The notes beneath the pieces are model-generated. The model had not been told where the DNA came from. It did not search any database and worked only from the letters and a program-made list of their open reading frames with translations. This document shows, piece by piece, positions 512 to 32,000 of a stretch of DNA of 32,000 nt. The number at the start of each line of letters is the position of its first letter. The stretch's first letter is position 1. Position numbers and translations under genes: made by a program. Source of the stretch: Opitutales bacterium (GTDB lineage Bacteria > Verrucomicrobiota > Verrucomicrobiia > Opitutales > PNEW01). The DNA lies in NCBI GenBank assembly GCA_965219535.1, contig CBDCNV010000002.1:690001-722000 (forward strand), read 5' to 3'.

Positions 512-611
512 GTCCCAGCACGCTTCTTCACTTACAACACTCTCTAACGCGCTAGGGAACAGCCGTCGCTGTGCAATGTTAGGCTATGGCCGTCAGGCAG
601 CCCGTTCCACC
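512..611 (+). repeat. X-family nested-hairpin (REP/BIME-like) element, left arm cut or abutted by IS copy 1
   Basis: Reads CAGCACGCTTCTT, a spacer, then AACGCGCTAGGGAACAGCCGTCGCTGTGCAATGTTAGGCTATGGCCGTCAGGCAGCCCGTTCCACC. Homologous to 28139-28283 and 31825-31930. Confidence 0.75.
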
Positions 612-638
612 TTATTGCTTAACACTTAAAACTTATCA
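611..638 (+). repeat. Degenerate heptamer array (CTTANNN)x4, pyrimidine-type
   Basis: cttattg cttaaca cttaaaa cttatca, directly before the stop (651-653) of the minus-strand gene. Complement of the TTAAGTG/TTAGGTG family. Confidence 0.7.
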
Positions 639-650
639 CTAGATCACACC

Positions 651-2870
651 TCATTCAATCGTCAACTCTTCAATGGCAACAGTGATTTCATCCCCGTCTT
701 CATTGGCAAAGGTGGCAACGATGCTCAGTGTCGGCTGAGGCGTTTCGTCAGACTTGAAGTTGTTCTGTGTAATCAGGGTTTCAAACCCAGTCGTTCTCGA
801 ACCACTCTCCGCGACGACGATCGAAGCGCCGTTCGTCTGCAAGAGGTCGCCTCCAGTGATCCGCAACCCAGGGTTGCCGGCGGCTACAGTGAAGGAACCT
901 TCTCCGAATAATAGGTGCGGCACCGCATCGCCATCGGCATCGATGTCGCCTACTGTTAAGCGTACCGCGATCGGCACGCCGCGCGCGTCCACACCCACTC
1001 TTCCGGTGCTTCCGCTGAAGACGGTGTTTGAAAGCTGTACCCCTCCCAGTCCCGTGGAGTTGACTACTTCCACGAGGGCCACGTCGGCCTGGGCGTCATA
1101 GACCTGTCCTTCGGGGAACAGCGCCTGGTTAAAGGCGTTGATCTTGCCCACTGTGAAGATGCTGAAGAAGGTATTGGCGTCCGCTCCATCGATGACCACG
1201 CTGGGCTTGCCCGTCACGTACTCAACCTGCTGGTTGTAGCGCGGGGGTATGGACGGGGGCAGGAAGGTGGCCGGATCCAGGGTTACAGTAAAGGTCCCGT
1301 TGCCTGAGAACTCTACCTGCACAATGTCTTCGGTTTCATCCATGAAGGAAACGCGGGTGATCTGTCCCGGTTTGGCCTGGAGTTGGACGGACTCTCCGGT
1401 GAGTAAAATCTGGTCGAAGATGTTACCGTTGGCATGCTGAATGTTTTCACCTGCGATATCGCCCGAGCCGTCGAGGACGAGGGGTACAGAGGGAGCTGCT
1501 ACGGTGATGACCGCGGTATCGCTGTCAGCGCTACCTCCGGCGTTAGTAATTTGTGCCCAGTAGTTCGTGCTCACAGTGAGAGCGCCGGTGGTTAAGGTGC
1601 CACTGGTGGCACCGGTTACGGGATTATTGGTGTCACCGCTGTTACCGGTATACCACTGGTAAGTAAGATCATCACCGCTCGCTGCTACGGTTAGAACGAC
1701 AGCGGTACCCGACTGTACTTCCTGGCTTGCCGGCTGCGTGGTGATGGATGGACCTGTTGCCGGGGGTGGTCCACCTCCACCATCGAACCCGGGTGCGCCA
1801 ATGGGGGTAAAGCCTAAGTCGTCGATGGCAACAGAGCTGAAAGTCGAATTTATGTTCGCATTATCGATTAAAAGAATCTTAGCAATGCCGCCCACCGCTC
1901 CCAATTCGCTGGCAACAAGTTTATACTGTGGAGCACCGGATGGCGGACGGATATTTGCCGGCAGTTCATTGTTTGTGAAAATTAAGTTATCTTCCGTGTC
2001 AAATGCCTGAATAGTCCCGTCGTTTTCGCCACCTGATGATGACTGGAGGGCTCCCGCAAAGAATTGAACCCGAGCCGCAGGCGTCTCAAAAGTGATCGTT
2101 CCCGTTTCACCATTTAATACTTTCCAATGTACTCGACCCGAACGGAGTTGAAAGAATGTTGGGTCTTCTCCAGCTATGAATATAAAGCCGTCGGTAAAAG
2201 TGGCCGTGAACGGAGATACACCAACAACATTGTCCTGAAATCCTTCAGGAAATTCTTCAAAAGTGGTGAATGCGGTGTTGTTTGTCGGCCCGTCTACGAG
2301 CGTATAACCCACATCGTCGATGACTAATTTGCCGGTAACATTGACAAACTTAAGCTCTCTCATCCCGTCAAAGAGATTGAGATCCGATTCGTCGAGGAAA
2401 GCTCCACTGAAGGCGACGAAACGTTGTGGCGAAGGATTGGTATCGGGATTTATACTTGTTGGCAACCCGTTTACAACTCCTTGCGGATTTACTAAGTAGA
2501 ATTCATCACGTCCCTGAGGTATATCTCGGGTATCGATAGTTCCACGGACCTCGATCTTACCGGCACCCGTGTTCTCGGCCACGTAAAATTCGATTTCAGC
2601 AATCCCTTTGTTCGTGAATATTTTCCCTTCCTCACCGGGCCCCAGGGTTATTGCTTTGCTCCCCGAGTGCAACAGATTGGGGTCTTCCAATGTCTCCACC
2701 GTGAAACCGATAAAACGGACATCATTAGGCGGATCACCGAGAGTAAAGTCGACCGAACCTTCAGCATCTTCAAAATCTAAAAATACTTCCTGGTCTTGCG
2801 GAAGCGCATAAATAAAAAACGGTGTGATTAATGAAATAAGTAGTACCGATACATTATTTTTATAATTCAT
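651..2870 (-). CDS. Secreted protein with bacterial Ig-like domain, function unknown
   Basis: Long ORF. The ATG at 2870 gives a signal-peptide-like MNYKNNVSVLLISLITPFFIYALP (the track start at 2906 is TTG). Ig-like module ITTQPASQEVQSGTAVVLTV..LTYQWY..AVITV. Confidence 0.7.
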   Translation of the reverse strand: MNYKNNVSVLLISLITPFFIYALPQDQEVFLDFEDAEGSVDFTLGDPPNDVRFIGFTVETLEDPNLLHSGSKAITLGPGEEGKIFTNKGIAEIEFYVAENTGAGKIEVRGTIDTRDIPQGRDEFYLVNPQGVVNGLPTSINPDTNPSPQRFVAFSGAFLDESDLNLFDGMRELKFVNVTGKLVIDDVGYTLVDGPTNNTAFTTFEEFPEGFQDNVVGVSPFTATFTDGFIFIAGEDPTFFQLRSGRVHWKVLNGETGTITFETPAARVQFFAGALQSSSGGENDGTIQAFDTEDNLIFTNNELPANIRPPSGAPQYKLVASELGAVGGIAKILLIDNANINSTFSSVAIDDLGFTPIGAPGFDGGGGPPPATGPSITTQPASQEVQSGTAVVLTVAASGDDLTYQWYTGNSGDTNNPVTGATSGTLTTGALTVSTNYWAQITNAGGSADSDTAVITVAAPSVPLVLDGSGDIAGENIQHANGNIFDQILLTGESVQLQAKPGQITRVSFMDETEDIVQVEFSGNGTFTVTLDPATFLPPSIPPRYNQQVEYVTGKPSVVIDGADANTFFSIFTVGKINAFNQALFPEGQVYDAQADVALVEVVNSTGLGGVQLSNTVFSGSTGRVGVDARGVPIAVRLTVGDIDADGDAVPHLLFGEGSFTVAAGNPGLRITGGDLLQTNGASIVVAESGSRTTGFETLITQNNFKSDETPQPTLSIVATFANEDGDEITVAIEELTIE

Positions 2871-3030
2871 ATTGACCCCAGTATTTGAATTAAACTTTAA
2901 TCCCAAGTAATTACGACTGCCTTAATTTTACAATTAATCATGCTAAAAATAGAGTTCAACTGTTAATTAAAATTTTTATATGTTTATTCCCCATCCACGT
3001 TTATTAGCATCACCGTTTTGACTAAGCACG

Positions 3031-6000
3031 ATGAATCGTGCTTTAAAATACCTCGGCCTTCTTCTCCTCACGGGCTGTTGTTTTTTCGGCTTCTTGTATT
3101 TCTGGAGTGATGTCTTAAAGCCGGTACTGGAGGAGGACCCCATTCGCTATAGTCCGGAGGTACTCGAGTATACGGATGAGTTAAGAGACGTTAGTTTTAC
3201 GGCGGAAGATACCTATAAAATACAGCGGGATGTCGATTACCGCGAGGGTGAATCCGGCCGTTGGTATCCCAAGAGTGAGTCGCCCATCCTGGCTGAACTC
3301 GTAGAGGAGGGTAAGCTTCCATCGGTGGCTGAGCGCGTGGGGACCGAGCCGGTTGTGCTTGAGGGGGTGGACGGTATCGGCAATTATGGGGGCACCTGGT
3401 TTCGCGCCGAATGGTCGCAGTACAATATAAGTCTCATCGAAAGCTTTCTCTCCGGGGCAACCCTTGTTCGCTGGTCACCGCTTGGCTACCCGATTGTTCC
3501 GCATGTGGCCAAAGGATGGGAATCCAGCCCTGATAAGAAGGAATGGACTGTCTCTCTACGCAAAGGAATGAAATGGTCGGATGGTCATCCTTTCACCGCT
3601 GACGACATACTCTTCTGGTACTACCAGGAAGTAAAACTTGATTATATCGAAGACACTTTACGGGGAGATTGGATGACCGTGGGTGGCGCGCAGGGAGAAA
3701 TTGTAAAAATAGATGATTACACCCTGAAATTTATTTTTCCAAAATCCTATGGGGTGTTCATCGAACAACTGGCGCGTGCCTGGTGGTTTTGTTCACCTCG
3801 TCACTACATGGAAAAGTATCATCCGGACCTCGGCAACGATGAACTCATTGAAAAGACGATGGATGCGAGAAGACTGCCATCACGTAAGAGTTTATATCTT
3901 TTACTGAAAAAGTGGTTCAACCCTGAACACCCGCGACTCTGGCCCTGGGTATATCGCAATTACAAAGCTAATCCCCCCCAGATTTTTGTGCGCAATCCCT
4001 ACTACTGGGCGGTCGACACTGTCGGTAACCAGCTTCCCTATGTAGATAGAATGCATTACGATATAAAAAGCCAGAAGTTCATACCTATCGTCGCCGCAAA
4101 TGGAGCCGTTACCTTTTCCATATATATCATGGATTTATATTACACCATGCTAATGACTGAACGCGAAGCGGGTGGATACGAAGTCTATCACTGGTTTCCC
4201 GCTTCCCGCTCGCGGTATCAGGTTTATCCAAATTTCAATTTCCGGATCGATCCCGATGATCCGGTGACCCAAATGAAGCATGACCTCATTAACGACAAAC
4301 GATTTCGCCAGGCACTGTCCCTCGCGATCAATCGACGACAGATAATCGACACGGTATACAATGGAGTGGGAGAGCCCGCGCAGTTATCGCCCGGAAGAGA
4401 ATCGTATTTTCACCATGAAAAACTTCACAAGAGCTTCACCGAATTTGCGCCCGAGAAGGCTGACATTTTACTTGATGCCCTCGGGTTGACATTCAGGGAT
4501 TCAGAGGGTTACCGCACATTCAAGGATGGAACACGCATGGTCTGGTATTATACCCTGTCACAGGGAGAAGACGAGGGGCCTACGGAACTCATCCTCGAGG
4601 ACTGGGGTCACGTAGGCGTTCGCTTTATCCTGCGACAACCATCGCATGCCCTCTTTAATCTTGAAGTAAAAACCGGCAAATTGGAGTTCTCCGTTGGACC
4701 AGGAAACAGTGAATACAGCCCCGTAATGGGTCCAATGTTTTTTGCCGGTTTAACGACAACTCAAGCTTACGGCTATTGGAGTTGGTATATGCGAGGTGGC
4801 CTCTATGGAAATCCTGAAGCTGTGGAATTAGGAGGTATCGAACCGCCGGAGGATCATCTTCTGCGAAGGGCCATGGAACTGGTCGAAGAATCATACGGCG
4901 CCATGAACCGTGAAGAGCAGCGGGATATTTTCAATAAACTGTTCGACATCGCGGCGGAGAATCTCTGGACGATAAATATAACTACTCCACCCCCACATCC
5001 AGTGGTCGTAAAAAACGGATTTAAAAACGTGCCCCGCAATGCTCTCTATGGAGCGCGTTTCAGTCCACCGGCTTTGACCGGTATCGAAACTTACTTTTTC
5101 GACGAACCTTATGATTCACCGGGTGCCATTGCCCAGATCAAAAATGAAATGATCGAAGTGACCCCCGCTCCTTACGGCACCGATGAAGACGAACTGCAAT
5201 TGAACAGTTACGAGCGATTGGTATGGTTAATAAAAAACCTATTACTGGGCATCGCGGTTTGTGGCATTATCATGGTCGGGGTACGGCATCCGTATGTAGG
5301 CAGGCGATTACTTATCATGATACCGACCCTTCTCATTATATCGGTGATCTCTTTTTTTATCATCCAGCTGCCACCGGGTAGTTACGTCGAGACCAAGATC
5401 TTTGAGCTGCAGTTAAGAGGGGGACCAATGGCTATCGATGAAGCTAAAGAACTGCGCGAGATTTATCATCTAGATAAACCCTTCCCCGAACGTTACTCCC
5501 GCTGGCTCGGATTGAACTGGTTTACTTCCTTTGGACGAAAAGACCAGGGTTTACTTCAAGGCTACATGGGGCTGTCGATGGAGAACCAGAGCACGGTTAA
5601 TGAGTTAGCAGGTAATCGTATTCTCCTCACCTTTCTTATATCGTTAGGAACTATTCTCTTCACTTGGACACTGGCGCTTCCAATTGGAATTTATTCGGCC
5701 GTGCGGCAGTATACTTTAAGTGATTATTTCTTTACCTTGATAGGTTTCATCGGGATGAGTATCCCCAGTTTTCTTCTCGCCTTGATCCTTCTTTACTGGA
5801 GCCGGGAGTACCTGGGGATAAACATTTCAGGATTGTTTTCGCCTGACTATGCGGCTCAACCTGAATGGACGCGGGGTAAGATTATTGATATGTTGAAACA
5901 TATCTGGGTGCCGATCGTTGTCCTTGGTGTCACGGGAACGGCAAGCATGATTCGCATCATGCGCGGGAACTTGCTCGATGAATTAAAAAAACCCTACGTT

Positions 6001-6318
6001 ATTACCGCGATGGCAAAAGGGGTGCGCCCTTTAAAATTGTTGCTTAAATATCCTGTGCGATTGGCGCTCAATCCCTTTATCTCGGGCATTGGAGTGCTCT
6101 TTCCTCAATTGATTTCCGGTGGCGCGATCGTCGCGATGGTTCTCAGCCTGCCCACCGTCGGACCCTTATTATTGGAATCACTTTTACTCGAGGATATGTA
6201 TGTAGCGGGATCAATGCTCATGGTGCTCAGCCTGCTCGGAGTTCTGGGCACCCTGGTCAGCGATCTCCTCCTCATCTGGCTCGATCCCCGAATACGGATG
6301 GAAAGTGGAGCACGATGA
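3031..6318 (+). CDS. Fused ABC transporter solute-binding protein (family 5, DppA/OppA-like) and DppB/OppB-type permease
   Basis: 1095 aa. N-terminal TM anchor, about 700 aa of SBP-like region, and a linker TM (LVWLIKNLLLGIAVCGIIMVGV). Then a permease N-terminus (RRLLIMIPTLLIISVISFFIIQLPPG) and an EAA-loop-like region (ITAMAKGVRPLKLLLKYPVRLALNP). Confidence 0.75.
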   Translation: MNRALKYLGLLLLTGCCFFGFLYFWSDVLKPVLEEDPIRYSPEVLEYTDELRDVSFTAEDTYKIQRDVDYREGESGRWYPKSESPILAELVEEGKLPSVAERVGTEPVVLEGVDGIGNYGGTWFRAEWSQYNISLIESFLSGATLVRWSPLGYPIVPHVAKGWESSPDKKEWTVSLRKGMKWSDGHPFTADDILFWYYQEVKLDYIEDTLRGDWMTVGGAQGEIVKIDDYTLKFIFPKSYGVFIEQLARAWWFCSPRHYMEKYHPDLGNDELIEKTMDARRLPSRKSLYLLLKKWFNPEHPRLWPWVYRNYKANPPQIFVRNPYYWAVDTVGNQLPYVDRMHYDIKSQKFIPIVAANGAVTFSIYIMDLYYTMLMTEREAGGYEVYHWFPASRSRYQVYPNFNFRIDPDDPVTQMKHDLINDKRFRQALSLAINRRQIIDTVYNGVGEPAQLSPGRESYFHHEKLHKSFTEFAPEKADILLDALGLTFRDSEGYRTFKDGTRMVWYYTLSQGEDEGPTELILEDWGHVGVRFILRQPSHALFNLEVKTGKLEFSVGPGNSEYSPVMGPMFFAGLTTTQAYGYWSWYMRGGLYGNPEAVELGGIEPPEDHLLRRAMELVEESYGAMNREEQRDIFNKLFDIAAENLWTINITTPPPHPVVVKNGFKNVPRNALYGARFSPPALTGIETYFFDEPYDSPGAIAQIKNEMIEVTPAPYGTDEDELQLNSYERLVWLIKNLLLGIAVCGIIMVGVRHPYVGRRLLIMIPTLLIISVISFFIIQLPPGSYVETKIFELQLRGGPMAIDEAKELREIYHLDKPFPERYSRWLGLNWFTSFGRKDQGLLQGYMGLSMENQSTVNELAGNRILLTFLISLGTILFTWTLALPIGIYSAVRQYTLSDYFFTLIGFIGMSIPSFLLALILLYWSREYLGINISGLFSPDYAAQPEWTRGKIIDMLKHIWVPIVVLGVTGTASMIRIMRGNLLDELKKPYVITAMAKGVRPLKLLLKYPVRLALNPFISGIGVLFPQLISGGAIVAMVLSLPTVGPLLLESLLLEDMYVAGSMLMVLSLLGVLGTLVSDLLLIWLDPRIRMESGAR

Positions 6319-6433
6319 GGCGCTTCCAGAAAGCCGGATAACCCGAAAACCAGAAGGCCAGACAACTGGACATCAGTACGAGGGTAATGCCTGACATCCC
6401 CAAACCGTTAGGAACAATCCGCAATTGCTTAAT

Positions 6434-6468
6434 CCCGAACCCTGAACCGTGAACCGTGAACCCCGAAC
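6434..6468 (+). repeat. Heptamer array (CNNGAAC)x5, complement of GGTTCAG family
   Basis: cccgaac cctgaac cgtgaac cgtgaac cccgaac. The last unit overlaps the stop codon (6468-6470) of the minus-strand PhyH gene. Confidence 0.85.
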
Positions 6469-7265
6469 TACTTAATCCTCATCACCTGTTGCGCATGATC
6501 GGAGAGACTGTCCCGGAGTTCGCAAGGTATCATATCTTCCGTAGGTTCAAGTGTCTTACCGCTGTAAAACCAGGGACGGCTGAAATGCATGATGAGATCA
6601 TCGCGTGGGTGATCGGAGACGTTGGGCGTTCCGCGGTGGAGAAGACGGAGGTCAAAGAGCCAGATGGATCCGCGTTTCACATTGAGACGAACCGGGTAGT
6701 AGTTGCCGATGCGAGTCGTGTCTTCGCCCAGAACGTGATCGAACCATTTTCCTCTTCTTCCATTGATTAGAGAATGACAAACTTCCCTGTCCGCGATGTA
6801 ATGACTGCCGGGCAGCACTTCAATGCTGCCATTCTCCTCCGTCGAATTGACGAGGGGAATGCGAAGGGCGAGCATGATCGGCGGAGTCATCAATCCCGGA
6901 AAGAGAGGTTCCACATCGCGATGCCACCGCTGATAGACGGCGCCGGGAAACGGCGTGAGCGAACTGTAATCTTGGAAGATATATTCTTCCCCGAGAAAAC
7001 TTTCAAAAAGTTTAACGAGGGTGGGATGATCAAAGATCGCCGCGTCGACAAAGGGACGCTCAAGAGGAATATCGATGGCGTAACGGTTCGGTCCCCGGTT
7101 GGGATTGTCCCCCTGCCTTTCAATTTCCCGGTCACGAATCGGCAACCACGCTGCGTTGATCCGATCGAGAATGTCAATGGGGATAAAGTCTTCAATTACG
7201 ATAAACCCGTTAATCTTTAATTCTTCAATCAGTTGATCGCTATTTATCTCTGCCACTTCGCGCAT
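6468..7265 (-). CDS. PhyH-family Fe(II)/2-oxoglutarate dioxygenase
   Basis: 265 aa with WHRDVEP (HxD), LPGSH and a distal LLHRGTPN. N-terminus typical of phytanoyl-CoA dioxygenase-like proteins. Confidence 0.8.
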   Translation of the reverse strand: MREVAEINSDQLIEELKINGFIVIEDFIPIDILDRINAAWLPIRDREIERQGDNPNRGPNRYAIDIPLERPFVDAAIFDHPTLVKLFESFLGEEYIFQDYSSLTPFPGAVYQRWHRDVEPLFPGLMTPPIMLALRIPLVNSTEENGSIEVLPGSHYIADREVCHSLINGRRGKWFDHVLGEDTTRIGNYYPVRLNVKRGSIWLFDLRLLHRGTPNVSDHPRDDLIMHFSRPWFYSGKTLEPTEDMIPCELRDSLSDHAQQVMRIK

Positions 7266-7274
7266 GAGTGATAA

Positions 7275-7298
7275 GTCAAAAGGTCAAAAAGTCAAAAG
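7275..7298 (+). repeat. Octamer array (GTCAAAAR)x3
   Basis: gtcaaaag gtcaaaaa gtcaaaag, 9 nt from the ATG of the minus-strand gene. It reads TTTTGAC in that gene's sense direction. Confidence 0.9.
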
Positions 7299-7403
7299 GG
7301 AATGCGCTTTTGCGCGAATAAGGAAAATGGTTCACGTTAACCGTTCATCCGTATTTTACTATTTCTTTTAACCGCATATTCAGGCATTCTCACTTCCATT
7401 TCC

Positions 7404-7419: not shown

Positions 7420-7426
7420 TTTCCCC

Positions 7427-25200: not shown

Positions 25201-26037
25201 ATGAGCACAGTATTAATTACAGGGGCCAGTGGCTTTATCGGTCGGGCGCTTGCACCCGCGATGGCTGCAAATCACAACGTGCTTTGCATGAGTCGAAAGA
25301 ATCCAGAGTTAGATCTCCCGTGGGTTCAAGGTGACTTCGGTTCTTTCGAAGATCTGCGAAAACTCGATGGACATACTATCGATGTGGTCATTCACCTCGC
25401 CGCGGTAACCGGCGGTTGCACCGAGCGCGAGGGAATGCTTGTCAATGTCGAGGGCTCGCGCTGCCTGATGCGCTACCTGATGGACACAGGTTGCCAAAAG
25501 TTTGTTTTAGCCAGTTCAATTGCGGCAGTCGGTTTTCAGAATAAGGCTTTTAGACCATTGCAACTTCCCATGCTGGACGAACACCCCTGCCTCGACCGCG
25601 ATGGCTATGGGTTTTCAAAATTTATGATGGAAGAAATTACCAAGTACCACCAGCGCCAGAATGAATCAATTGATGTGATTAACCTGCGCCTGTCTTCCGT
25701 TGGTAGAGATGACATAATGCCCGACCTCAAAAAGCCGGCCCCGCTGACCGCGTGGGCCCTCGGTGGTATCTCGTACATGGTGCGCAGCGATGCCATCCGC
25801 GCCTTCGCCACCGCGGCCGAAGCGCCGTACAAATCGGGAGTGCGCACGCTGAATGCTACAGCACCACGGGCCTGGGCTGCGGTACCGGTCGCCGAATTAC
25901 TGGAGAACTGGTGGGGGAGTGAAGTCGACTTGTCCCATTTTAAACAGCCCGGCCACGAGTACGATGCCGTCTATGACGTCAGCCGCATCGCAAGTGAGCT
26001 CAGCTTCGTAGCCGAAAAAACGGAGAGCATGCACTGA
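25201..26037 (+). CDS. NAD-dependent epimerase/dehydratase (extended SDR)
   Basis: 278 aa with VLITGASGFIGRAL and the YxxxK motif YGFSK. The 21-nt gap after the dehydrogenase gene suggests a two-gene operon. Confidence 0.8.
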   Translation: MSTVLITGASGFIGRALAPAMAANHNVLCMSRKNPELDLPWVQGDFGSFEDLRKLDGHTIDVVIHLAAVTGGCTEREGMLVNVEGSRCLMRYLMDTGCQKFVLASSIAAVGFQNKAFRPLQLPMLDEHPCLDRDGYGFSKFMMEEITKYHQRQNESIDVINLRLSSVGRDDIMPDLKKPAPLTAWALGGISYMVRSDAIRAFATAAEAPYKSGVRTLNATAPRAWAAVPVAELLENWWGSEVDLSHFKQPGHEYDAVYDVSRIASELSFVAEKTESMH

Positions 26038-26043: not shown

Positions 26044-26099
26044 TGTTAGTTTTTAAGTTAATAAGGTTCACGGTTCACAGTTCAGGGTTCAGGGTTCAG
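26044..26099 (+). repeat. In-register heptamer array (TTAAGT-type changing to GGTTCAC/GGTTCAG)
   Basis: tgttagt ttttaag ttaataa ggttcac ggttcac agttcag ggttcag ggttcag, beginning 7 nt after the stop. Confidence 0.85.
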
Positions 26100-26139
26100 G
26101 GTGGAAGATGTCGAGCTACGCTCTCGGTACAGGGTTCAG
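26086..26139 (+). repeat. F-element copy 2
   Basis: 54 nt, identical to 23969-24022. Confidence 0.9.
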
Positions 26140-26205
26140 AAAACATCGAGGCGGTATTCGATTGTCAAATGATCTAATCAGATACTGCTATCATTATTCC
26201 AAATT

Positions 26206-26297
26206 AAAACCTAAATCATAAAACCTAACACGCGCGTCGGCGCTTCCCCGTTCTTCCTTTTTGACCTTTTGACTTTTTGACATTTTGACATTTTGAC
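26206..26297 (+). repeat. Pyrimidine-type arrays: (AAAACCT-like)x3, junction box ACGCGCGTCGGCGC, (NTTTTGAC)x5
   Basis: aaaacct aaatcat aaaacct, then aacacgcgcgtcggcgc, then tttttgac cttttgac tttttgac attttgac attttgac. Ends 3 nt before the stop at 26301-26303. Confidence 0.9.
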
Positions 26298-26300: not shown

Positions 26301-27020
26301 CTATTTCGTCACCATCGGAGAATTCAGCGGGTTCAAAATATATTCACTTTCACTAGCCAGGTGGCCGATTTGATTATGGTGAAGAATGCGTGTGCGTTCG
26401 GGGGTTTGATGGATCTTACTGAATGCTGCATTATAGTGTGTGAATCGATCCGCGTCATCATTTGGCGGTAAACCGAGTAAAGTACTAATAAGAGTAGATC
26501 CAAAAGCGCCATGTGAAACCGCGGCTACTTTTTCATCGTCTACGGGGTGGTATCGATTCAGATGGGCAATGAAGCTAAGGGCATTTTCGTAGGCAACCTG
26601 AACCCAGTTGTTTCCATGTGATGGATCGGGATCGATACTTTCCCATTCGATGAAACACCAGCCATCGTCTGTTACGTCTTCCGGCAATACAACATTGGCA
26701 CAGACTTCGCGCATTTCCGATCGCTTCAACCCGGGCAATACCGCTTTCTCTTCAAAATATGGACCACCCCAAACTCCGCCCCACTCATGGAGCCCAACAT
26801 AAACGTGAGGATCAAGGTTGAGAAACTCGCCTATGATTGTGGCGGTTTGTAAAGTTCTCAACATCGGGCTGCAGTAGAGCCGTGTTATACCCAGCCCACT
26901 GAGCGCTTCACCCGTTCTCCCTGCCTGTTCCACTCCCAGGTCTGTCAACGGAGGTTCAGTACTGCGTTCATCTCCCCGGTTATTGGTCGATTGTCCATGA
27001 CGTATGAAATAAAATTCCAT
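26301..27020 (-). CDS. Histidine phosphatase family protein (phosphoglycerate mutase-like)
   Basis: 239 aa with the N-terminal catalytic RHG motif (MEFYFIRHGQSTNN), LTDLGVEQA and a later SHG. Confidence 0.8.
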   Translation of the reverse strand: MEFYFIRHGQSTNNRGDERSTEPPLTDLGVEQAGRTGEALSGLGITRLYCSPMLRTLQTATIIGEFLNLDPHVYVGLHEWGGVWGGPYFEEKAVLPGLKRSEMREVCANVVLPEDVTDDGWCFIEWESIDPDPSHGNNWVQVAYENALSFIAHLNRYHPVDDEKVAAVSHGAFGSTLISTLLGLPPNDDADRFTHYNAAFSKIHQTPERTRILHHNQIGHLASESEYILNPLNSPMVTK

Positions 27021-27057
27021 GATGAGTAAAGTATAAGTTAAGAGGGTACAGGTGAAT

Positions 27058-27106
27058 CAGTGAACAGTGAACAGTGAACAGTGAACAGTGAACAGTGAAC
27101 AGTGAA
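27058..27106 (+). repeat. Perfect heptamer array (CAGTGAA)x7
   Basis: 49 nt, 38 nt from the ATG (27018-27020) of the minus-strand phosphatase gene. Confidence 0.95.
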
Positions 27107-27272
27107 CAGCAGTCTGTGTCGAGACAACGGGATCTGAAGAGTCTAGCTGGATTATAGGAAGAATGGAAGTTTGGATGAATGGGGATTAACTAAATACTTA
27201 ACCTGAATGTAACCGAAAGAGCTTTCCAGCATTCCACTATTCCAACGATCCATGCATCCAGTATCTTCCCGC

Positions 27273-27293
27273 TGTCGACCTTCGACGCTCGAC
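27273..27293 (+). repeat. Heptamer array (NNTCGAC)x3
   Basis: tgtcgac cttcgac gctcgac, preceded by cttcccgc as at 18979-18986. Ends 7 nt before the stop at 27301-27303. Confidence 0.8.
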
Positions 27294-27300: not shown

Positions 27301-28059
27301 CTAGTATAAACTCATGAGTCCTTCTGTCTCCGGCGGTGCCTTCGACTCGAATGCTTCGGTGATCCAACGGGCTTCGGATGGTCTGCCCGGATTTCTGTAG
27401 GCATAGACCACCGCCCATCGCGTGTCGCTGTCCGGCTTTCGGGGTGTAACGCCATGGGCTGCATGTGTCCACATCACGATCACCGTTCCGGCAGGAGCAT
27501 TCAACGGTATTATTTCCAGCGGTCTCCCTGTCGCGGGATGTTTTTTACCCGCCATCCAGCAGCTTAACAGTTCTTCATCGCTCTGTGCCCTAATTGATTT
27601 GTCAAGGTAGAGATGACTGCCGGGCACTACCTTCAGGCCGGCATCATCCGCCGTAAATCCATTGACATAGAAAAATATTCGAATGAACCCCAGATCGGGA
27701 TTGTCTTCTCCGTATTCATGGCTGTGCCAAGTATTCGCCGCGGCACCTCCCCGACGGTTGAGTGTCACGCAGTGGTCAAACCGGATATCTTCTCCAAGGA
27801 TGGACCTGGCCATCGCGAGAATTTGTGGATGTGCAATCAAGCTAGCGAGATAATCGTTATACTCTGCAGCGTACATATTCGGTTGAGGTTGATATTCATT
27901 TTCATCAAACAGCGTCTGAACACAGGTTAATGCATCGGTCAGTTTTTCACACGCCTGTGGCGTTAGTAAACCGGGTAGCATGAGTTGTCCATCGCGATCG
28001 AGGAGTGCTTTTTCTTCCGCGGTAATGGTATGCGGGTGGAAAATAGGATCGGGGGGCAT
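27301..28059 (-). CDS. PhyH-family oxygenase-like protein with non-canonical WHSHE metal motif
   Basis: 252 aa with VVPGSHLY and a distal WTHAAHGVTP as in PhyH proteins. WHSH occupies the position of WHxD. Confidence 0.7.
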   Translation of the reverse strand: MPPDPIFHPHTITAEEKALLDRDGQLMLPGLLTPQACEKLTDALTCVQTLFDENEYQPQPNMYAAEYNDYLASLIAHPQILAMARSILGEDIRFDHCVTLNRRGGAAANTWHSHEYGEDNPDLGFIRIFFYVNGFTADDAGLKVVPGSHLYLDKSIRAQSDEELLSCWMAGKKHPATGRPLEIIPLNAPAGTVIVMWTHAAHGVTPRKPDSDTRWAVVYAYRNPGRPSEARWITEAFESKAPPETEGLMSLY

Positions 28060-28084: not shown

Positions 28085-28133
28085 TAGTGAACAGTGGAAA
28101 CTCAGTAGCAGTTTTAGGTTTTTGATTTTAAGT
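28085..28133 (+). repeat. Degenerate in-register heptamers (TAGTGAA CAGTGGA ... TTTAGGT TTTTGAT TTTAAGT)
   Basis: Begins 26 nt from ATG 28059 (minus strand). The same module order is seen at 31770-31824. Confidence 0.7.
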
Positions 28134-28138
28134 AGTGA

Positions 28139-28283
28139 GGTGGAGCGGGCTGCCTGACGGCCATAGCTTAACACTGCACAGCGACGGCTGTTCCCTAGCA
28201 CGCTTCTTTTTTTATAACTTATAACAAACGCGGTAGGGAACAACCTTCGCCAAGGCTATGGCTGTCAGGCATCGCGTTCCACC
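28139..28283 (+). repeat. X-family element, long form (both hairpin loops carry inserts)
   Basis: Reads ggtggagcgggctg[cctgacggccatagcttaacactgcacagcgacggctgt]tccctagcacgcttc. Then an AT-rich spacer and aacgcggtaggga[acaaccttcgccaaggctatggctgtcaggcat]cgcgttccacc. Confidence 0.85.
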
Positions 28284-28373
28284 ATTTTTAAATTATAAAT
28301 CTATATTATCTTTCTTGTGCTTCTTACCTGCCGGCTATCTCTTCTTTTTCTTACCCTTTTCTGCAATCCTAAT

Positions 28374-29246
28374 TTATAATTCAACATTTAATATGGTGGG
28401 TCCATCACCCGCAAGCGTGGTGCGGTGCATGATGCGTTTGTGACTTTTGGTGTCCCAAGGTCGGCCCCGGTGAAGACAGTAGCGATTGTCCCACATTACC
28501 AGGTCGTTCACGCGCCAGTGGTGTCGATAAACATACTTTGGCTGCGTCGACCACTCCAGTAGATCCTTCAACAATGAGCGTCCCTTCTCGATCGGCCACC
28601 CTACGATGTGTGAGGCATATGAACCAACGAAAAGAATCTTTTCGCCAGTATCCACTATCGTGCGAACGACAAGCTGCTTTACCGGAGGAATCTCGTCTTG
28701 AAATTCTTTGGTTAGCAGATTGGGTGCGATCTGGGCTCGTGAGTAAGCCATACTGTGTTCAGCAATCAGGCCTTCCAGCTCGAACTTCTTTGCGTCCGAC
28801 AGGGCGGCATAAGCGGCACGCAGGTTGGCGTACTCGGTTTCGCCTCCTGAAGGTGGTAAGACCTTCGCCGAGAGCAACGATGCTCGCAAAGGAACTTGCC
28901 GAAAGGAGCCGTCGGAGTGCCAGAGCAAGTTACCGGCCTGATACAGTGTCCTCTTGTCTTCCGGCGCTATGATACGGCCGTTTTCGTCAACATTGGAGAT
29001 ATAAAACACCGGTCGACCGTGACCGAAGGGGTCATTTGCCAGGCTCGGTTCGATCGTACCGAAACCTTCGCTGAAAGCTACCTGTTGTTTGTCGGTGATA
29101 TCCTGATCGTGAAAGACGAGCACAGCGTATTTTTGGAATGCGTCTCGAAGTAGCTGGAAGTTTTCCTCATCGACACCCGCGGCGATATCAACACCCTCAA
29201 CTTCGGCTCCGATGTGTTCGCTCAGTTTTTTGATCGTGATGGCCAT
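28374..29246 (-). CDS. TauD/TfdA-family Fe(II)/2-oxoglutarate dioxygenase
   Basis: 290 aa from MAITIKKLSEHIGAEVEGVDI. Motifs WHSDGSF (HxD), GGETEYAN and VMWDNRYCLHRG. The track start at 29351 runs into the IS terminus, so it is not used. Confidence 0.85.
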   Translation of the reverse strand: MAITIKKLSEHIGAEVEGVDIAAGVDEENFQLLRDAFQKYAVLVFHDQDITDKQQVAFSEGFGTIEPSLANDPFGHGRPVFYISNVDENGRIIAPEDKRTLYQAGNLLWHSDGSFRQVPLRASLLSAKVLPPSGGETEYANLRAAYAALSDAKKFELEGLIAEHSMAYSRAQIAPNLLTKEFQDEIPPVKQLVVRTIVDTGEKILFVGSYASHIVGWPIEKGRSLLKDLLEWSTQPKYVYRHHWRVNDLVMWDNRYCLHRGRPWDTKSHKRIMHRTTLAGDGPTILNVEL

Positions 29247-29288
29247 ATCAATTGTCGATTTGGAAGATGTCGGACTTTGCCCTCTGTA

Positions 29289-29309
29289 CGATTTTCGATT
29301 GTCGATTAA
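29289..29309 (+). repeat. Heptamer array (CGATTNN)x3
   Basis: cgatttt cgattgt cgattaa. The complement type (AATCGNN) occurs at 31981-32000. Confidence 0.75.
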
Positions 29310-29338
29310 CCCTATCTTTCTTTCAACCACTGAACCGT

Positions 29339-30713
29339 GGTATAGGTTCAAGACATTCTTTACACAAAAGGTTCAGGACATCCTTTACAGATTGCCAAAG
29401 AAAGAAGGATGCTAAGTAAGGGGTATGATGTCATGGAAGGAAACAAATAAAATGGACCAAAGATACCAATTCGCCCTGGAATCGATGCAACCGGGAGTAA
29501 AGATGAACGAGCTGTGTGAAGACTACGGGATCAGCCGACCGACAGGGTATAAATGGAAGAAGCGCTTCCTGAGCGAAGGGATGGAGGGGTTGCACGAGCG
29601 CTCACGCCGACCGCATGGAAGTGTTCAGGAACTATCCGAATCAGTAGTATGTACGCTGATCAAACTCAAGCATCATCACCCGACGTGGGGCCCCTACAAG
29701 ATCCGCGAGCTTTACCAGAGGCGTTACGGGAAGGCCCCCTCAGACTCGAGCGTGAAACGGGTCTTGGAACGTGCGGGACTGGTGCAAAAGCGTCGGCGCA
29801 GAAGCGCTCAAAAAAGCGGACGCCTTTACCGCAGCGTCAAGGCCAGTGGCTGTAACGAAGTGTGGAGCGTAGACTTCAAAGGGTGGTGGCACACCGTTGA
29901 TGGCAACCGTTGTGAACCTTTGACGGTACGGGATGAATGGAGCCGCTATGTATTAGAGGTGCGGGTGCTCAGTTCAGCCCGTAGCGAAGCGGTGCGTGAA
30001 TGCTTCACAAAACTCTTTGAACGCTATGGACTTCCCGCTTGCATCCGCAGCGACAACGGCAGTCCCTTTGCCAGTGCCAATGCGGTCCTGGGCCTGAGCA
30101 AACTGGCGGCCTGGTGGCTGGCCTTAGGGATCAATCTCGAGCGTGGACGTCCGGGTAAACCCCAGGATAACGGTGCCCATGAGCGTCTCCATCGCGATAT
30201 CAAAGAGGAGTTGCAAAAACATGCCCAGGACGATCTTCGCACCCAACAGGTGGCCTTCGATCTGTGGCGCAAGACCTTCAATGAAGAACGCCCCCATGCG
30301 GCTCTTGCCATGAGCACGCCCTCTGAAATCTATCAGCACAGCTCTCATCCTTACGGTGGCACTCCTGCCGATATCAGCTATGATTTGATGACTCGCCGGG
30401 TCTCAAAAAGCGGGTCTATCAAACTCGATGGCTTCCAGATTCCTATCTCCACCGCCCTCGCCGGTTGGAGCGTTGGACTAAAACCACTAGACACGGTACA
30501 CTTCGATGTTTACTTTGCCACTCTCAGAATCGGTCAGATTGACCTTTCAACGGCTGCTTTCATTGGGGCCGCTTGCGGCCCCAACAATGCCAGCCAAACC
30601 TCTAAAACCGCATAACATTAACTTAACTATATAACCCGATTACCGTTCAGCATCCCTCACAAAGTGTAAACCATGTCTTGATCTAAATCTGTAAACCATG
30701 TCCTGGTTGTACC
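29339..30713 (+). mobile_element. IS481-family insertion sequence, complete copy 2 (1375 bp) with 4-bp CCGT target duplication
   Basis: Ends are GGTATAGGTTCAAGACATTCTTTACAC...CAGGACATCCTTTACAG and, at the other terminus in inverted form, GTGTAAACCATGTCTTG...CTGTAAACCATGTCCTGGTTGTACC. CCGT lies at 29335-29338 and again at 30714-30717. Confidence 0.85.
29425..30615 (+). CDS. DDE transposase (HTH + rve integrase core; IS481-like)
   Basis: 396 aa. HTH region ELCEDYGISRPTGYKWKKRF. DDE candidates VWSVDFKG, IRSDNGSPF and PQDNGAHERLHRDIK. Confidence 0.9.
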   Translation: MMSWKETNKMDQRYQFALESMQPGVKMNELCEDYGISRPTGYKWKKRFLSEGMEGLHERSRRPHGSVQELSESVVCTLIKLKHHHPTWGPYKIRELYQRRYGKAPSDSSVKRVLERAGLVQKRRRRSAQKSGRLYRSVKASGCNEVWSVDFKGWWHTVDGNRCEPLTVRDEWSRYVLEVRVLSSARSEAVRECFTKLFERYGLPACIRSDNGSPFASANAVLGLSKLAAWWLALGINLERGRPGKPQDNGAHERLHRDIKEELQKHAQDDLRTQQVAFDLWRKTFNEERPHAALAMSTPSEIYQHSSHPYGGTPADISYDLMTRRVSKSGSIKLDGFQIPISTALAGWSVGLKPLDTVHFDVYFATLRIGQIDLSTAAFIGAACGPNNASQTSKTA

Positions 30714-30769
30714 CCGTGAACCCAGAACCCTCTTACCTAACACTTAAAACTTAACACCTAACACGCGCG
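30714..30769 (+). repeat. In-register pyrimidine-type heptamers (NNGAACC changing to ACCTAAC/ACTTAAA) ending in junction box
   Basis: ccgtgaa cccagaa ccctctt acctaac acttaaa acttaac acctaac acgcgcg, running up to the stop (30776-30778) of the minus-strand PhyH gene. Confidence 0.8.
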
Positions 30770-30775
30770 GAGGCG

Positions 30776-31687
30776 TCATCGCGCTGCCGCGCGCTTCGGT
30801 TTATCCGGATCGGTATCGAAATATTGATGAGCTGCATCCTTCTGCGCTTCGTAGATCCCGATCGCGCCACTTGGCGGTGGCAGTGGGATTCGGACCGGTA
30901 CCTTTTCAAGGCGCGGCTCGATCGTCGGTTCACCGGCTACGATGCGCGCGTTGTAGGTCTCAAGATCGGGAATCAATGGTCCGGTGTAGGTACCGGACAG
31001 CGGCCATGCGTCAGCGGCGGCAAGCTCATAGTAGAGCACGCGTCGGGGCCGCTGAGATCGATTGAGATCCGATCCGTGTACCATGCGAGCGGAAAAGAGA
31101 ATCAGGGAACCGGCTGATGCGGTCAGCTTCACTGCTTTCGAAAAGTCCAGGCCACATGTCTTCGGATTCAGGGCACCGGTAAAGCGGCCCTTGTGATGGT
31201 GATCAAACACGGGTCCCTTGTGCGTGCCTGGTAATACCAGCAGCGCTCCGTTGTCTTCGACAATGTCATCGATCAATACCGCGCTGACCAGGACGTCATC
31301 ATTTGTGTGCGGGTAAAAGGCCCAGTCCTGGTGCCACTGGACGGGTGCACCGAAACCTGCCATTTTCATATTGATTTTGGCAAAATGCAGTCGGATGTTC
31401 GGTCCGATAAGGCGGCTGACTACGTCGACATATTGGGGTTTGCGAACGAAATCCCGAAAGACCGGGTGTTGGTCATCAGGTTTGATGATCCGCCGGATGC
31501 GGGGCCGTTCCGTAGTATGCGACTCCTCCAACTCAACCACACCGTCGCTTTGTGTCATGGAACTGCCGCGTTCCACGAACGTGGCAATCACCTTTTTGAG
31601 TTCGCCGATCTCATCCTGCGAGAACAAGCCTTCAACCACGAGATAGCCTTCGGATTTGTAGAAGCCGACCTGCTCATTACTAATCAT
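30776..31687 (-). CDS. PhyH-family Fe(II)/2-oxoglutarate dioxygenase
   Basis: 303 aa. N-terminus QVGFYKSEGYLVVEGLFSQDEI, then WHQDWAFYPH (HxD), LPGTHKG and a distal MVHGSDLNRS. Confidence 0.85.
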   Translation of the reverse strand: MISNEQVGFYKSEGYLVVEGLFSQDEIGELKKVIATFVERGSSMTQSDGVVELEESHTTERPRIRRIIKPDDQHPVFRDFVRKPQYVDVVSRLIGPNIRLHFAKINMKMAGFGAPVQWHQDWAFYPHTNDDVLVSAVLIDDIVEDNGALLVLPGTHKGPVFDHHHKGRFTGALNPKTCGLDFSKAVKLTASAGSLILFSARMVHGSDLNRSQRPRRVLYYELAAADAWPLSGTYTGPLIPDLETYNARIVAGEPTIEPRLEKVPVRIPLPPPSGAIGIYEAQKDAAHQYFDTDPDKPKRAAAR

Positions 31688-31769
31688 GAATCTATCTCCC
31701 TAGTGACCACTCGATAATGCTTAGAGTCTCAATCACCTGCGAAAGTGCAACATAAAAGGGGCTGAAAAT

Positions 31770-31790
31770 CAGTGAACAGTGAACAGTGGA
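31770..31790 (+). repeat. Heptamer array (CAGTGAA)x2 + CAGTGGA
   Basis: cagtgaa cagtgaa cagtgga, upstream (in the minus sense) of the PhyH gene. Confidence 0.85.
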
Positions 31791-31824
31791 AAAGCCGAGA
31801 TAAGTTATAGGTCTTGAGTAGTGA

Positions 31825-31930
31825 GGTGGAGCGGGCTGCCTGCTGGCCATAGCCTTGGCGAAGGTTGGTCCCTAGCACGCTTCTTATTTAATAACTTATA
31901 ACAAACGCGGTAGGGACACCGCGTTCCACC
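31825..31930 (+). repeat. X-family element, intermediate form (insert only in first hairpin)
   Basis: Reads ggtggagcgggctg[cctgctggccatagccttggcgaaggttgg]tccctagcacgcttc. Then ttatttaataacttataacaa and aacgcggtagggacaccgcgttccacc. Confidence 0.85.
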
Positions 31931-31980
31931 CTTTTTTGAATTATAAATAATTTTGTGTTTCTTGTGGCTAACTTTTCTTC

Positions 31981-32000
31981 AATCGGCAATCGAAAATCGG
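31981..32000 (+). repeat. Heptamer array (AATCGNN), runs off window
   Basis: aatcggc aatcgaa aatcgg. Confidence 0.6.

Follow-up and report, generated by a model that had tools for sequence, protein, structure and literature searches.

Tandem 7- and 8-nt repeat arrays with a common polarity at gene boundaries of Opitutales and other PVC bacteria

Introduction

Tandemly repeated heptamers are reportedly a feature of cyanobacterial genomes, where Mazel et al. are said to have described in 1990 the families STRR1 (CCCCAGT), STRR2 (TTGGTCA) and STRR3 (CAACAGT). The present work concerns arrays of 7- and 8-nt units that adjoin the genes of a stretch of Opitutales DNA of 32 kb and 49% G+C (assembly GCA_965219535.1, contig CBDCNV010000002.1, positions 690,001 to 722,000; hereafter the window, in which positions are counted from the first letter). 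Their orientation is set by the side on which a gene lies, whatever the direction of that gene. Like the STRR families, these are short intergenic tandem repeats, and GAACAGT, a rotation of CAGTGAA, agrees in six of seven positions with the unit that STRR3 is said to have; unlike them, they occur in a host from the Verrucomicrobiota, the units are not identical and the dominant family is an octamer. The cyanobacterial framing adopted in an initial sequence-only reading of the window is not sustained, as the window aligns at 81–92% nucleotide identity to an Opitutales (Verrucomicrobiota) metagenome-assembled genome (MAG), OY829953.1.

A second system comprises the G-rich heptameric simple sequence repeats (SSRs) GGGAATC of Xanthomonas and GGGGA(C/T)T of Nostoc PCC 7120, which lie "almost exclusively" closer to the 5′-neighbouring open reading frame (ORF) whatever its orientation and for which no function was found (Rehm et al. 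2015, PMC4692102). The window arrays share with them the tandem heptamer, a mostly intergenic location, a highly variable copy number and the same polarity rule, and inverted pairs occur in Xanthomonas as they do here. The sequence-only reading, which was aware of no described rule of this kind, needs amending in this respect, since a similar one is in print for one G-rich heptamer family. Each genome in that study holds one family able to form G-quadruplexes (G4), whereas at least five families are found here and most are unable to do so, since a G4 made from four or more units takes a run of at least three G in each, and tracts of three G are confined to the GGGTTCA (GGTTCAG) family and absent from GTCAAAAG, CAGTGAA and TTAGGTG. 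The published hosts belong to phyla other than the Planctomycetes–Verrucomicrobia–Chlamydiae (PVC) group. The arrays described here include an 8-nt unit. The published SSRs also prefer four units and are under-represented between divergent genes, in contrast to the 2–23 copies found here and to a presence in divergent spacers about as often as in others.

The third system consists of the TAACTGA direct repeats of Beggiatoaceae, some cyanobacteria and Bacteroidetes, which stand upstream of starts in place of a Shine-Dalgarno (SD) sequence and for which S1, cold-shock proteins (Csp) or CsrA have been proposed as readers (MacGregor 2015, PMC4679880). The same paper reports that CspB of B. subtilis binds heptamer repeats with one protein per heptamer, which would make sense of a 7–8-nt period. 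As with the arrays described here, forward TAACTGA arrays end one to a few nt before starts without SD, the forward form is stop-rich while the reverse form is translatable, and occasional reverse copies lie just past stop codons; the polarity matches that of the CAGT-core families, with ACTG inward and CAGT outward. TAACTGA repeats are overwhelmingly 5′ (132 + 15 of 170 sets toward starts), whereas starts and stops are equally populated here. The output of Tandem Repeats Finder (TRF) for the window contains no TAACTGA array, the nearest being AATCAGT at 11528, which matches the reverse complement in six of seven positions.

A full-text literature search for the array strings returned nothing relevant. 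The pattern is genuine and far from random, and it extends beyond the window; it belongs to a phenomenon that has been described but is little known and has no explanation. Its presence in PVC lineages, with an 8-nt unit common to Opitutales, Phycisphaerae and Planctomycetes in one polarity, and the action of one rule on several unrelated families within one genome appear to be new. The equal use of starts and stops, the independence of the two ends and the exchange of families at an orthologous boundary without a change of polarity likewise appear to be new.

Results

Polarity of the arrays in the window

Arrays were detected with TRF and with our own scans for tandem 7- and 8-nt units. In the window, the purine- or G-rich form of each unit (GTCAAAAG, GGTTCAG, CAGTGAA, TTAGGTG) runs 5′ to 3′ away from the adjoining ORF, at starts and stops alike. 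All 24 boundary sites listed in the sequence-only reading carry tandem 7- or 8-nt arrays, those at 8188 (about 1.3 units), 26044, 24147 and 611 being weak or degenerate, and the polarity claimed there is found at every one of them, 12 of 12 to the right and 12 of 12 to the left of a gene (two-sided binomial ~1e-7). Counted by units of the four families, the left half of the spacers, which is to the right of a gene, holds 68 units with this form (X) on the + strand against 2 of its complement, and the right half 4 against 31; the Fisher p of 6e-20 is to be read with the units within one array not being independent. A test blind to unit identity gives the same picture, with G exceeding C on the + strand in 16 of 17 right-side arrays and C exceeding G in 13 of 14 left-side arrays. 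The exceptions are isolated single units (9356, 21546), the mid-spacer unit of a 64-nt element (24016) and insertion sequence (IS) end sequence (30620). Inside genes the units are equally frequent on the two strands (GTCRAAA 10:10). Put differently, the rule is X...X′ in every spacer on either strand or, equivalently, an mRNA that would run 5′-pyrimidine form, ORF, purine form-3′.

Arrays are common, but the original statement that they bracket almost every gene was too strong, as they are present at about 60% of window boundaries and about 40% of those in 170 kb of related Opitutales DNA. The spacing of 0–12 nt from start or stop codons proposed at the same time describes most arrays but not those at 20421, 27058 and 31770, which lie at 35–80 nt.

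The rule at other loci and in other lineages

A scan for TTTTGACNTTTTGACNTTTTGAC with one genome per species returned at least 114 loci (L001–L114). Among the matches listed, these belong mainly to Opitutales, Phycisphaerae, Planctomycetaceae, Isosphaeraceae, Thermoguttaceae and Bacteroidales, and none is cyanobacterial; at least 15 lie in one complete Opitutales MAG, OY829953.1. Counts at independent loci rest on crude but uniform ORF calls and on arrays ≤50 nt from an ORF end. Concordant and discordant arrays of the GTCAAAA family (GTCAAAAN) number 34:0 in Opitutales, 14:0 in Phycisphaerae and 7:0 in Planctomycetes, with 11:6 in Bacteroidota and 6:4 in other phyla, and the concordant ones are evenly split between start and stop boundaries. 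When all families are pooled for Opitutales and the window, 45 arrays are concordant against 5 (44/45 by regular-expression assignment), and with unit identity ignored 55 of 63 skewed arrays have G>C outward and the other 8 have C>G. The polarity proposed from the window is therefore also that of independent loci and of other PVC phyla. In Bacteroidales and Prevotella, arrays of TTTTGACN do not hold to the rule, and their commonest arrangement is the T-rich form upstream of starts.

An ORF-calling artefact, with wrong-way arrays hidden in over-extended ORFs, was considered and rejected, because every genic, far or discordant Opitutales case proved concordant on inspection. The six cases inspected (two distant discordant, four "genic" Opitutales) were each explained by an unannotated small gene (HU, with a canonical terminator), an ORF start called too far upstream or an ORF reading into a stop-free array, and all were concordant after correction. 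A small HU-like gene of the MAG (L056 4117–4909) combines a strong SD (AAGGAG) with an intrinsic terminator of textbook type, after which a GTCAAAAG array follows; the lineage thus does possess classical signals, which apparently belong to housekeeping genes.

In Phycisphaerae and Planctomycetes the unit reads GTCAAAAC outward and GUUUUGAC inward, the same polarity as in Opitutales. Of 10 arrays, 9 have C>G in the outward form and 1 has G>C, and CAACAA-type tracts often follow. GC skew consequently fails as a universal invariant, GTCAAAAC having C>G in Phycisphaerae with the polarity kept, and purine- or A-richness is a better but imperfect fit, with GGTTCAC and TCAGTTA as exceptions. The best common denominator across lineages is an A/G-rich outward strand that is poor in the complementary pyrimidines. 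As GTGAACA occurs outward and CTGAACC inward with five of seven bases in common on the same strand, the polarity is not set by a shared core motif.

Arrays present in the window

TRF reports 39 rows for the window, mostly with periods of 7 and 8 and their multiples. The largest arrays are (GGTTCAG)23.6, (CAGTGAA)13 and (CAGTGAA)8, to which about 12 arrays of TTTTGACN or GTCAAAAN are to be added, and all sit within a strand-asymmetric tract of 60–100 nt (Table 1). The G3N4 pattern of the longest array, judged from its letters, could form a G-quadruplex. The mirror arrangement described for the spacer 27147–27260 was recovered in imperfect form, with one purine-rich arm and one of CTTCCA/ATTCCA units. 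On the + strand, left-of-gene arrays are mostly TTTTGAC or TTCGAC (9 of 12) and right-of-gene arrays mostly GGTTCAG, CAGTGAA or TTAGGTG (8 of 12), an unequal usage that is unexpected for a strictly strand-symmetric process and makes a replication-strand effect possible. The two copies of the 64-nt dispersed element are 94% identical, with GGTTCAG ends around GGTGGAAGATGTCGAGCTACGCTCTCGGTAC, and a third copy of the core (79%) lies inside gene 28374–29351.

Table 1. Repeat arrays and related elements at gene boundaries of the window. Strand + denotes the outward form written on the + strand and strand − its complement.
Array or element	Position	Strand	Context
CTTAACA/CTTAAAA, complement of TTAAGTG family	611–640	−	left of stop of gene 651–2906 (−)
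GAACCNT x4.6, complement of GGTTCAG/GGTTCAC	6434–6468	−	abuts stop of gene 6468–7265 (−)
GTCAAAAG x3	7273–7299	+	right of gene 6468–7265 (−), start boundary
CTTTTTGA x2.5	7403–7422	−	just upstream of start of gene 7415/7427–8188 (+)
TAGTCAAAAAGTC, ~1.3 units	8186–8200	+	overlaps stop codon of gene 7415–8188 (+)
CCTTTTGACTTTTTGACT	8312–8329	−	overlaps stop of gene 8328–9149 (−)
(GGTTCAG)x23.6, perfect	9150–9316 (TRF 9152–9316)	+	abuts start of gene 8328–9149 (−)
TTCGACT/TTAGACT/TTTGACT x4	9453–9482	−	at stop of gene 9469–10482 (−)
TTAGGTG x3 then GTCGAAAG/GTCAAAAG x4, GAGCGCTGACGCGCG motif before	10505–10566	+	right of start of gene 9469–10482 (−)
GGTTTTGACCTTTTGAC	10655–10671	−	6 nt upstream of ATG, gene 10678–11526 (+)
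AATCAGT x2	11528–11545	+	right of stop of gene 10678–11526 (+)
TTTTGACN x4	17146–17179	−	7 nt upstream of ATG, gene 17187–18800 (+)
(CAGTGAA)x13	18804–18896 (TRF 18806–18896)	+	3 nt past stop of gene 17187–18800 (+)
CTTTCGAC x4	18986–19014	−	left of stop of gene 19033–20343 (−)
GTCTAAAG/GTCAAAGG/GTCGAAAG x4 then CAGTGAACAGTG	20419–20476	+	left part of spacer, 77 nt right of start of gene 19033–20343 (−)
GGTTCAG x2.3	23841–23856	+	5 nt from start of gene 21565–23835 (−)
64-nt dispersed element, GGTTCAG units at both ends	23966–24029	+	mid-spacer; second copy 26083–26146
Degenerate TTTGACC/TTAGACT/TTCGACC	24144–24174	−	upstream of ATG, gene 24187–25179 (+)
Degenerate TTAGKTN then GGTTCAS x5.4	26044–26102	+	right of stop of gene 25201–26037 (+)
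CCTAA-type units + CACGCGCGTCGGCGC, then TTTTGACN x5	26205–26297	−	left of stop of gene 26301–27020 (−)
(CAGTGAA)x8	27052–27109	+	right of start of gene 26301–27020 (−)
GGAAG/GGATG-type purine-rich units	27147–27180	+	left arm of imperfect mirror, other arm 27222–27260; R-Y +12, G-C +10
CTTCCA/ATTCCA-type then GTCGACC/TTCGACG/CTCGAC	27222–27292	−	left of stop of gene 27301–28059 (−)
TAGTGAACAGTGGA (CAGTGAA family, ~2 units)	28085–28098	+	right of start of gene 27301–28059 (−)
GTGAACCCAGAACCC, ACCTAAC x4, CACGCGCGGAGGCG	30716–30775	−	abuts stop of gene 30776–31687 (−)
CAGTGAA x3	31768–31790	+	80 nt right of start of gene 30776–31687 (−)

Turnover of the arrays and gene order

A contig from an ENA metagenome (L115) is 99.9% identical to window 1–19163 and differs from it, over 18.6 kb outside an IS junction, by 5 single-nucleotide polymorphisms and 4 indels, all of the latter being whole units inside arrays. 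They amount to +24 nt (3 x 8) at 7403, −7 nt at 9152, +14 nt at 11533 and −21 nt at 18806, that is, three units more in the 7403 array, one fewer in the GGTTCAG array, two more in the AATCAGT array and three fewer in (CAGTGAA)13. Comparison with more distant relatives reveals the exchange of whole families. The PhyH gene 8328–9149 has orthologues with 92%, 89% and 82% amino acid identity in L116, L117 and L118, and its 5′ boundary carries (CTGAACC)23 in the window versus TTTTGAC x3–4 in all three relatives, while the 3′ boundary holds 2 copies of GTCAAAAG in the window and 9, 2 and 1 in the others. At the 3′ boundary of the 19033–20343 orthologue, a TTAGGTG-type array in L117 stands in place of the GTCGAAAG array of the window. 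Copy-number polymorphism, which had been put forward as a check on the arrays, is thus evident both in the whole-unit differences of L115 and among the PhyH orthologues. The arrays gain and lose whole units by slippage and are hypermutable, microsatellite-like sequences that keep their position and polarity through the turnover of copy number and unit family.

Phase-variation (contingency) SSRs likewise gain and lose whole units between genomes that are nearly identical. Unlike these, the present arrays lie outside ORFs and outside the gap between −35 and −10 boxes, adjoin ordinary metabolic genes (PhyH, sulfatase, TauD) and are found 3′ as often as 5′.

Gene order is mosaic. Two blocks, one of 4 and one of 5 genes, are present in the window but not in L117, a relative at 89% amino acid identity, and orthologues of adjacent window genes are up to 240 kb apart in the MAG. 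The sequence-only reading had inferred that each gene is a cassette between inverted arrays, so that recombination flips or shuffles single genes and preserves the rule. The two block indels relative to L117 do break in array-bearing spacers, gene 19033–20343 is flanked by a 37-nt inverted pair of 86% (the array at 20419–20476 matching 18978–19014), and a gene at L021 is flanked by a 48-nt inverted duplication together with the same array. Any whole-gene indel must break in a spacer anyway, however, and none of 10 orthologue placements in relatives with 78–96% amino acid identity, admittedly a small sample, is inverted. Arrays at the two flanks of a gene occur independently (odds ratio (OR) = 1.8, p = 0.29), often belong to different families and so cannot recombine with each other, and are no more complementary than random pairs (−15.6 vs −14.8, p = 0.89). 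Recombination moreover cannot impose one absolute polarity on unrelated families, and the flipping of gene cassettes has to be considered the least probable of the explanations weighed here. A panhandle formed by 5′–3′ pairing of the two flanks of one mRNA was rejected as well, the duplex energies giving no signal.

Anatomy of array-bearing boundaries

Arrays were found at 34% of starts and 42% of stops in a first sample and, in a larger one, at 41% of tandem starts, 33% of divergent starts, 35% of tandem stops and 45% of convergent stops, without dependence on the orientation of the neighbour. They cluster at ORF ends, 34 of 45 lying ≤20 nt from an ORF. The first GTC follows the stop codon by −1 to 7 nt in 17 of 21 cases, the array often beginning with the last base of that codon (TAG-TCAAAAG), and the last GAC precedes the next ATG by 6–14 nt in 15 of 23 cases with a downstream ATG, the upstream arrays ending in TTTTGACTA.

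Whether one end of a spacer bears an array is independent of the other end (OR = 1.3, p = 0.65), and 39 of 53 array-bearing spacers hold one array only, solitary arrays still obeying the rule. These figures bear on the possibility that the A/G-rich 5′ array of a spacer pairs with its U/C-rich 3′ array, on either strand, into a hairpin spanning the spacer that would terminate transcription in both directions or be processed by RNase III; the polarity would then arise because no order other than A-left/U-right would give a weak rU:dA hybrid at the 3′ arm whichever way the spacer is read. The arrays do resemble bidirectional intrinsic terminators and repetitive extragenic palindromic (REP) sequences or bacterial interspersed mosaic elements (BIME) in their intergenic location, their strand symmetry, their arms (A-rich at 5′, U-rich at 3′) and their terminator position, and end-to-end pairing is possible in about a third of spacers. 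The minimum free energy structure of 29 of 78 spacers has at least 10 such pairs, with some z-scores of −5 to −8, and perfect 25-nt inverted arms occur, e.g., at L047 4390–4537 and window 7266–7414. Canonical terminators are absent, and paired inverted repeats were noted in Xanthomonas by Rehm et al. The arrays differ from such elements in having no short GC stem followed by a U run, the arms being direct-repeat arrays that are single and independent, often of different families (GGTTCAG vs TTCGAC, CAGTGAA vs TTTCGAC). Arm duplexes within spacers (−15.5 kcal/mol) are close to those between spacers (−14.0, p = 0.09; X against X, −13.0), and loops of 60–250 nt are far from the geometry of intrinsic terminators. 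Together with the independence of the two ends and the preponderance of single arrays, this makes the hairpin quite unlikely.

Sites resembling intrinsic terminators, defined by a GC stem of ≥5 bp, a loop of 3–8 nt and a U run within 0–2 nt, number 24 against 21.4 expected, with none at arrays, and sigma-70-like promoters are not in excess, with none coinciding with an array. SD sequences are rare in the lineage and absent from array leaders (anti-SD duplex −0.05 vs −1.48 kcal/mol, p = 0.001). Two further candidates were discarded: arrays acting as sigma-70 −35 boxes (TTGACA) or leaderless promoters, as no −10 box stands at a fixed distance and promoters show no excess, and a GC hairpin with a U-rich array as a terminator just upstream of ORFs, as the distal flanks are less structured than controls. 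The 36 nt beyond arrays are purine-rich outward (0.61 vs 0.48 in controls) and less folded, with a strand asymmetry that extends to GGAGG (8:0), GGAA (24:3) and ATGCG (14:2).

Over 80 nt, the outward composition in Opitutales is A.33–.37, G.25–.28, T.23–.24 and C.14–.16, and the inward RNA has about 26% C, about 15% G and about 62% pyrimidine and is weakly folded. A skew common to all intergenic flanks was rejected as the basis of the rule, since array-free flanks have little skew (outward G>C only +0.01 to +0.12, purine 0.50–0.55). Such an inward RNA is compatible with the earlier proposal that the arrays are Rho utilisation (rut) sites that stop read-in transcription on both strands, a logic that is symmetric for starts and stops and would suit a lineage lacking intrinsic terminators. 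The proposal agrees with the composition in Opitutales but is hard to reconcile with Phycisphaerae and Planctomycetes, where the inward unit GUUUUGAC has G>=C and the rut-like strand faces outward with polarity unchanged. Even in Opitutales the dominant unit UUUUGACN offers only 1–2 C per 8 nt, and arrays of 16–40 nt are shorter than a rut site, which takes at least 60–80 nt of unstructured RNA rich in C and poor in G. A similar rule is also reported for Nostoc, a cyanobacterium, and cyanobacteria, to our knowledge, lack Rho. Rut sites alone are thus a very unlikely basis for the rule.

Conserved frames surround the GTCAAAA units, with TA directly before them in at least 27 of 65 arrays and AGGA, GGAA or AGTT after. 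A GAGCGCTGRCGCGCG(TG) motif, which could form a GC hairpin of 4 bp, is found beside TTAGGTG and GTCAAAA arrays with the same polarity, at window 10493, 20410 and 11555 (+) and 26228 and 30760 (complement) and in L047, L104, L111, L112 and L117; in L117 the module is at the opposite end of an orthologous spacer and in the opposite orientation. The proximal TA and distal AGGA/GGAA frames and the recurrence of GAGCGCTGRCGCGCG would suit arrays that were decayed ends of elements resembling miniature inverted-repeat transposable elements (MITEs), with terminal inverted repeats containing sub-repeats, or oriented sites for a polar factor acting on DNA (a roadblock, Chi-like signal or telomere-like cap, for example). 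The spacers are full of other dispersed palindromic elements, an element with terminal inverted repeats looks alike in both orientations, and one octamer is common to PVC phyla. Paired ends are not required, however, and a palindromic element cannot explain why solitary arrays are always at the correct end. The sequence between arrays is unconserved and the cores are unrelated, different families occupy the same orthologous boundary, whole-unit copy change is typical of slippage, and several families would need several factors. A genome-wide Chi-like signal is further opposed by the balanced strands of units inside genes. Origins of this type are accordingly judged highly improbable.

Coding potential and the stop-codon content of units

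By direct reading, GTCAAAAN is stop-free in all frames and TTTTGACN has TGA in all three. Three MAG ORFs run into GTCAAAAN arrays (L056 4919–4941, L084 7131–7161, L111 5145–5175), which would add Lys-rich tails, and do so because the outward form is stop-free; ORF callers in turn put TTG starts inside TTTTGAC arrays, e.g., at window 7415. As a rule in itself, stop-codon content was rejected, since about five families fit, one contradicts and four are silent.

These properties are central to the explanation that the arrays are functionless slippage microsatellites and that coding potential and spurious signals act as a passive filter on their polarity. With stops in all three frames, the inward form of most families cannot become part of an ORF; the outward form can be translated and may extend over the ends of ORFs, and purine-rich forms would create SD-like or start-codon signals in leaders. 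The extreme instability and dispensability of the arrays, the stop content of GTCAAAAN and TTTTGACN, the three ORFs that read into an array and the 8:0 asymmetry of GGAGG/AGGAG in outward flanks are all in line with it, and MacGregor argued likewise for TAACTGA. The stop rule nevertheless fails for CAGTGAA, which has a stop in the outward form only, for TTTCGAC and CCGACAC and for the published GGGGATT and GGGAATC. A neutral filter also predicts that the stop-rich form is the safe one past stop codons, the opposite of what is observed, and gives no reason for arrays to hug ORF ends or for one octamer to keep its polarity in three PVC lineages. Passive filtering is therefore a conceivable but rather doubtful account of the rule.

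Gene content and other elements of the window

The window contains 21 long ORFs and one truncated transposase ORF, nearly all with Pfam domains, which indicates real genes. The domains comprise PhyH (five), sulfatase, SBP_bac_5/BPD_transp_1, TauD, ADH, epimerase, adenine glycosylase and an IS481-type transposase. Between 6468 and 31687 lie five PhyH-family dioxygenase paralogues together with TauD, sulfatase and xylose-isomerase-like TIM barrels, nearly all monocistronic. Spacers are mostly 100–400 nt and shorter than 30 nt in only two instances. No Rfam family matches the window at gathering score, and scans for tRNA and tmRNA genes in the window were negative. The relatives of the window come from marine or environmental metagenomes.

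Two 100%-identical inverted IS481-family copies (rve, LZ_Tnp_IS481), at 1–511, where the copy is cut by the window edge, and at 29339–29849 (ORF 29425–30615), enclose about 28.8 kb, and the non-array differences between the window and L115 cluster at the IS junction 512–554. Dispersed GC-rich palindromic elements (GGTGGAGCGGGCTGCC...GGCCATAGC..., CGCGGTAGGGACACCGCG) of REP- or MITE-like appearance are found at 548–640, 28110–28290 and 31825–31916, also at 20666–20713 / 21472–21519, and in spacers of the Opitutales MAG. A conserved spacer element of about 45 nt, TTTGTCATTGCGAG...GCAATCC, is present at 8205, 10570 and 20518 and in L116 (1295–1488) and L117 (4122–4354, 5384–5538), and is kept at orthologous positions in relatives while the surrounding arrays change.

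Discussion

The explanation that we tentatively favour, and that could well prove correct though we would not call it probable, is that the arrays are slippage-driven microsatellites whose orientation is selected on the transcript and which serve as polar insulators or leaders at gene boundaries. Slippage would create the arrays, and selection would keep those with a U/C-rich, G-poor and unstructured inward transcript. As orientation never changes, wrong-way arrays would have to be removed by selection; as starts and stops are treated alike and composition matters rather than a motif, that selection should act on the nascent transcript or the transcription bubble. Once a core motif, GC skew alone, recombination and palindromic elements have been set aside, what is left to set the polarity is a strand-specific read-out, of the transcript or of single-stranded DNA in the bubble. 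The equivalence of starts and stops also makes the entry of polymerase or RNA into an ORF, as opposed to its exit, the natural variable. A polymerase entering an ORF from either side would make U/C-rich, G-poor, unstructured RNA with a 7–8-nt period, and one leaving it would make A/G-rich RNA, the period being close to the footprint of a single oligonucleotide-binding (OB) fold domain of the S1, cold-shock or Rho N-terminal type. On sense RNA, a pyrimidine platform 6–14 nt before an SD-less start could function as an SD-independent leader that loads ribosomes via OB folds of the S1 or cold-shock type. On read-in or antisense RNA that is not translated, it could favour pausing or termination, through Rho where present, the weakness of rU:dA hybrids or a non-template strand rich in T. 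In a genome where operons are almost lacking and canonical terminators absent, genes would thereby be insulated one by one. The idea of an insulator, part of the earlier Rho proposal, is plausible in spirit but cannot rest on Rho alone.

Several points weigh against this explanation. Every functional step in it is inferred, a pyrimidine leader would, if anything, pair with purine-rich coding RNA, and the A/G-rich RNA after stops has no independent reason except that its complement faces inward. About 60% of boundaries are array-free with little skew (purine 0.50 and 0.55), so that arrays are dispensable, and purifying selection on orientation leaves the clustering of 34 of 45 arrays within 20 nt of ORF ends unexplained. 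The GC skew reverses from Opitutales to Phycisphaerae with the A/T polarity kept, and no single known factor (Rho, G4) fits all lineages. L115 is a low-coverage long-read contig, so that its copy-number differences could partly be assembly error, although the differences among independent JGI contigs argue that the variation is real.

An unlikely but more far-reaching alternative is a conserved polar gene-boundary code of PVC bacteria, written in GTCAAAAN and the other families and read by a dedicated strand-specific factor that marks every ORF end. Such a factor would attach to RNA or DNA in single-stranded form with one domain per 7–8-nt unit, making each gene an insulated unit of transcription and translation. 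It would constitute a bacterial insulator system and would explain the long-noted excess of heptamers in Xanthomonas, Nostoc and Beggiatoaceae.

At a practical level, the arrays are hypervariable strain markers, break short-read assemblies and mislead ORF callers. Even if they are neutral, their strict polarity reports sensitively on a constraint at ORF boundaries that is strand-specific and is not predicted by present models of gene expression in bacteria. If functional, they would represent a family-agnostic, orientation-coded signal at both ends of genes, in genomes with few operons, few SD sites and no classical terminators, and a single explanation would then cover the excess of 7-nt repeats, so far unaccounted for, in several bacterial phyla.

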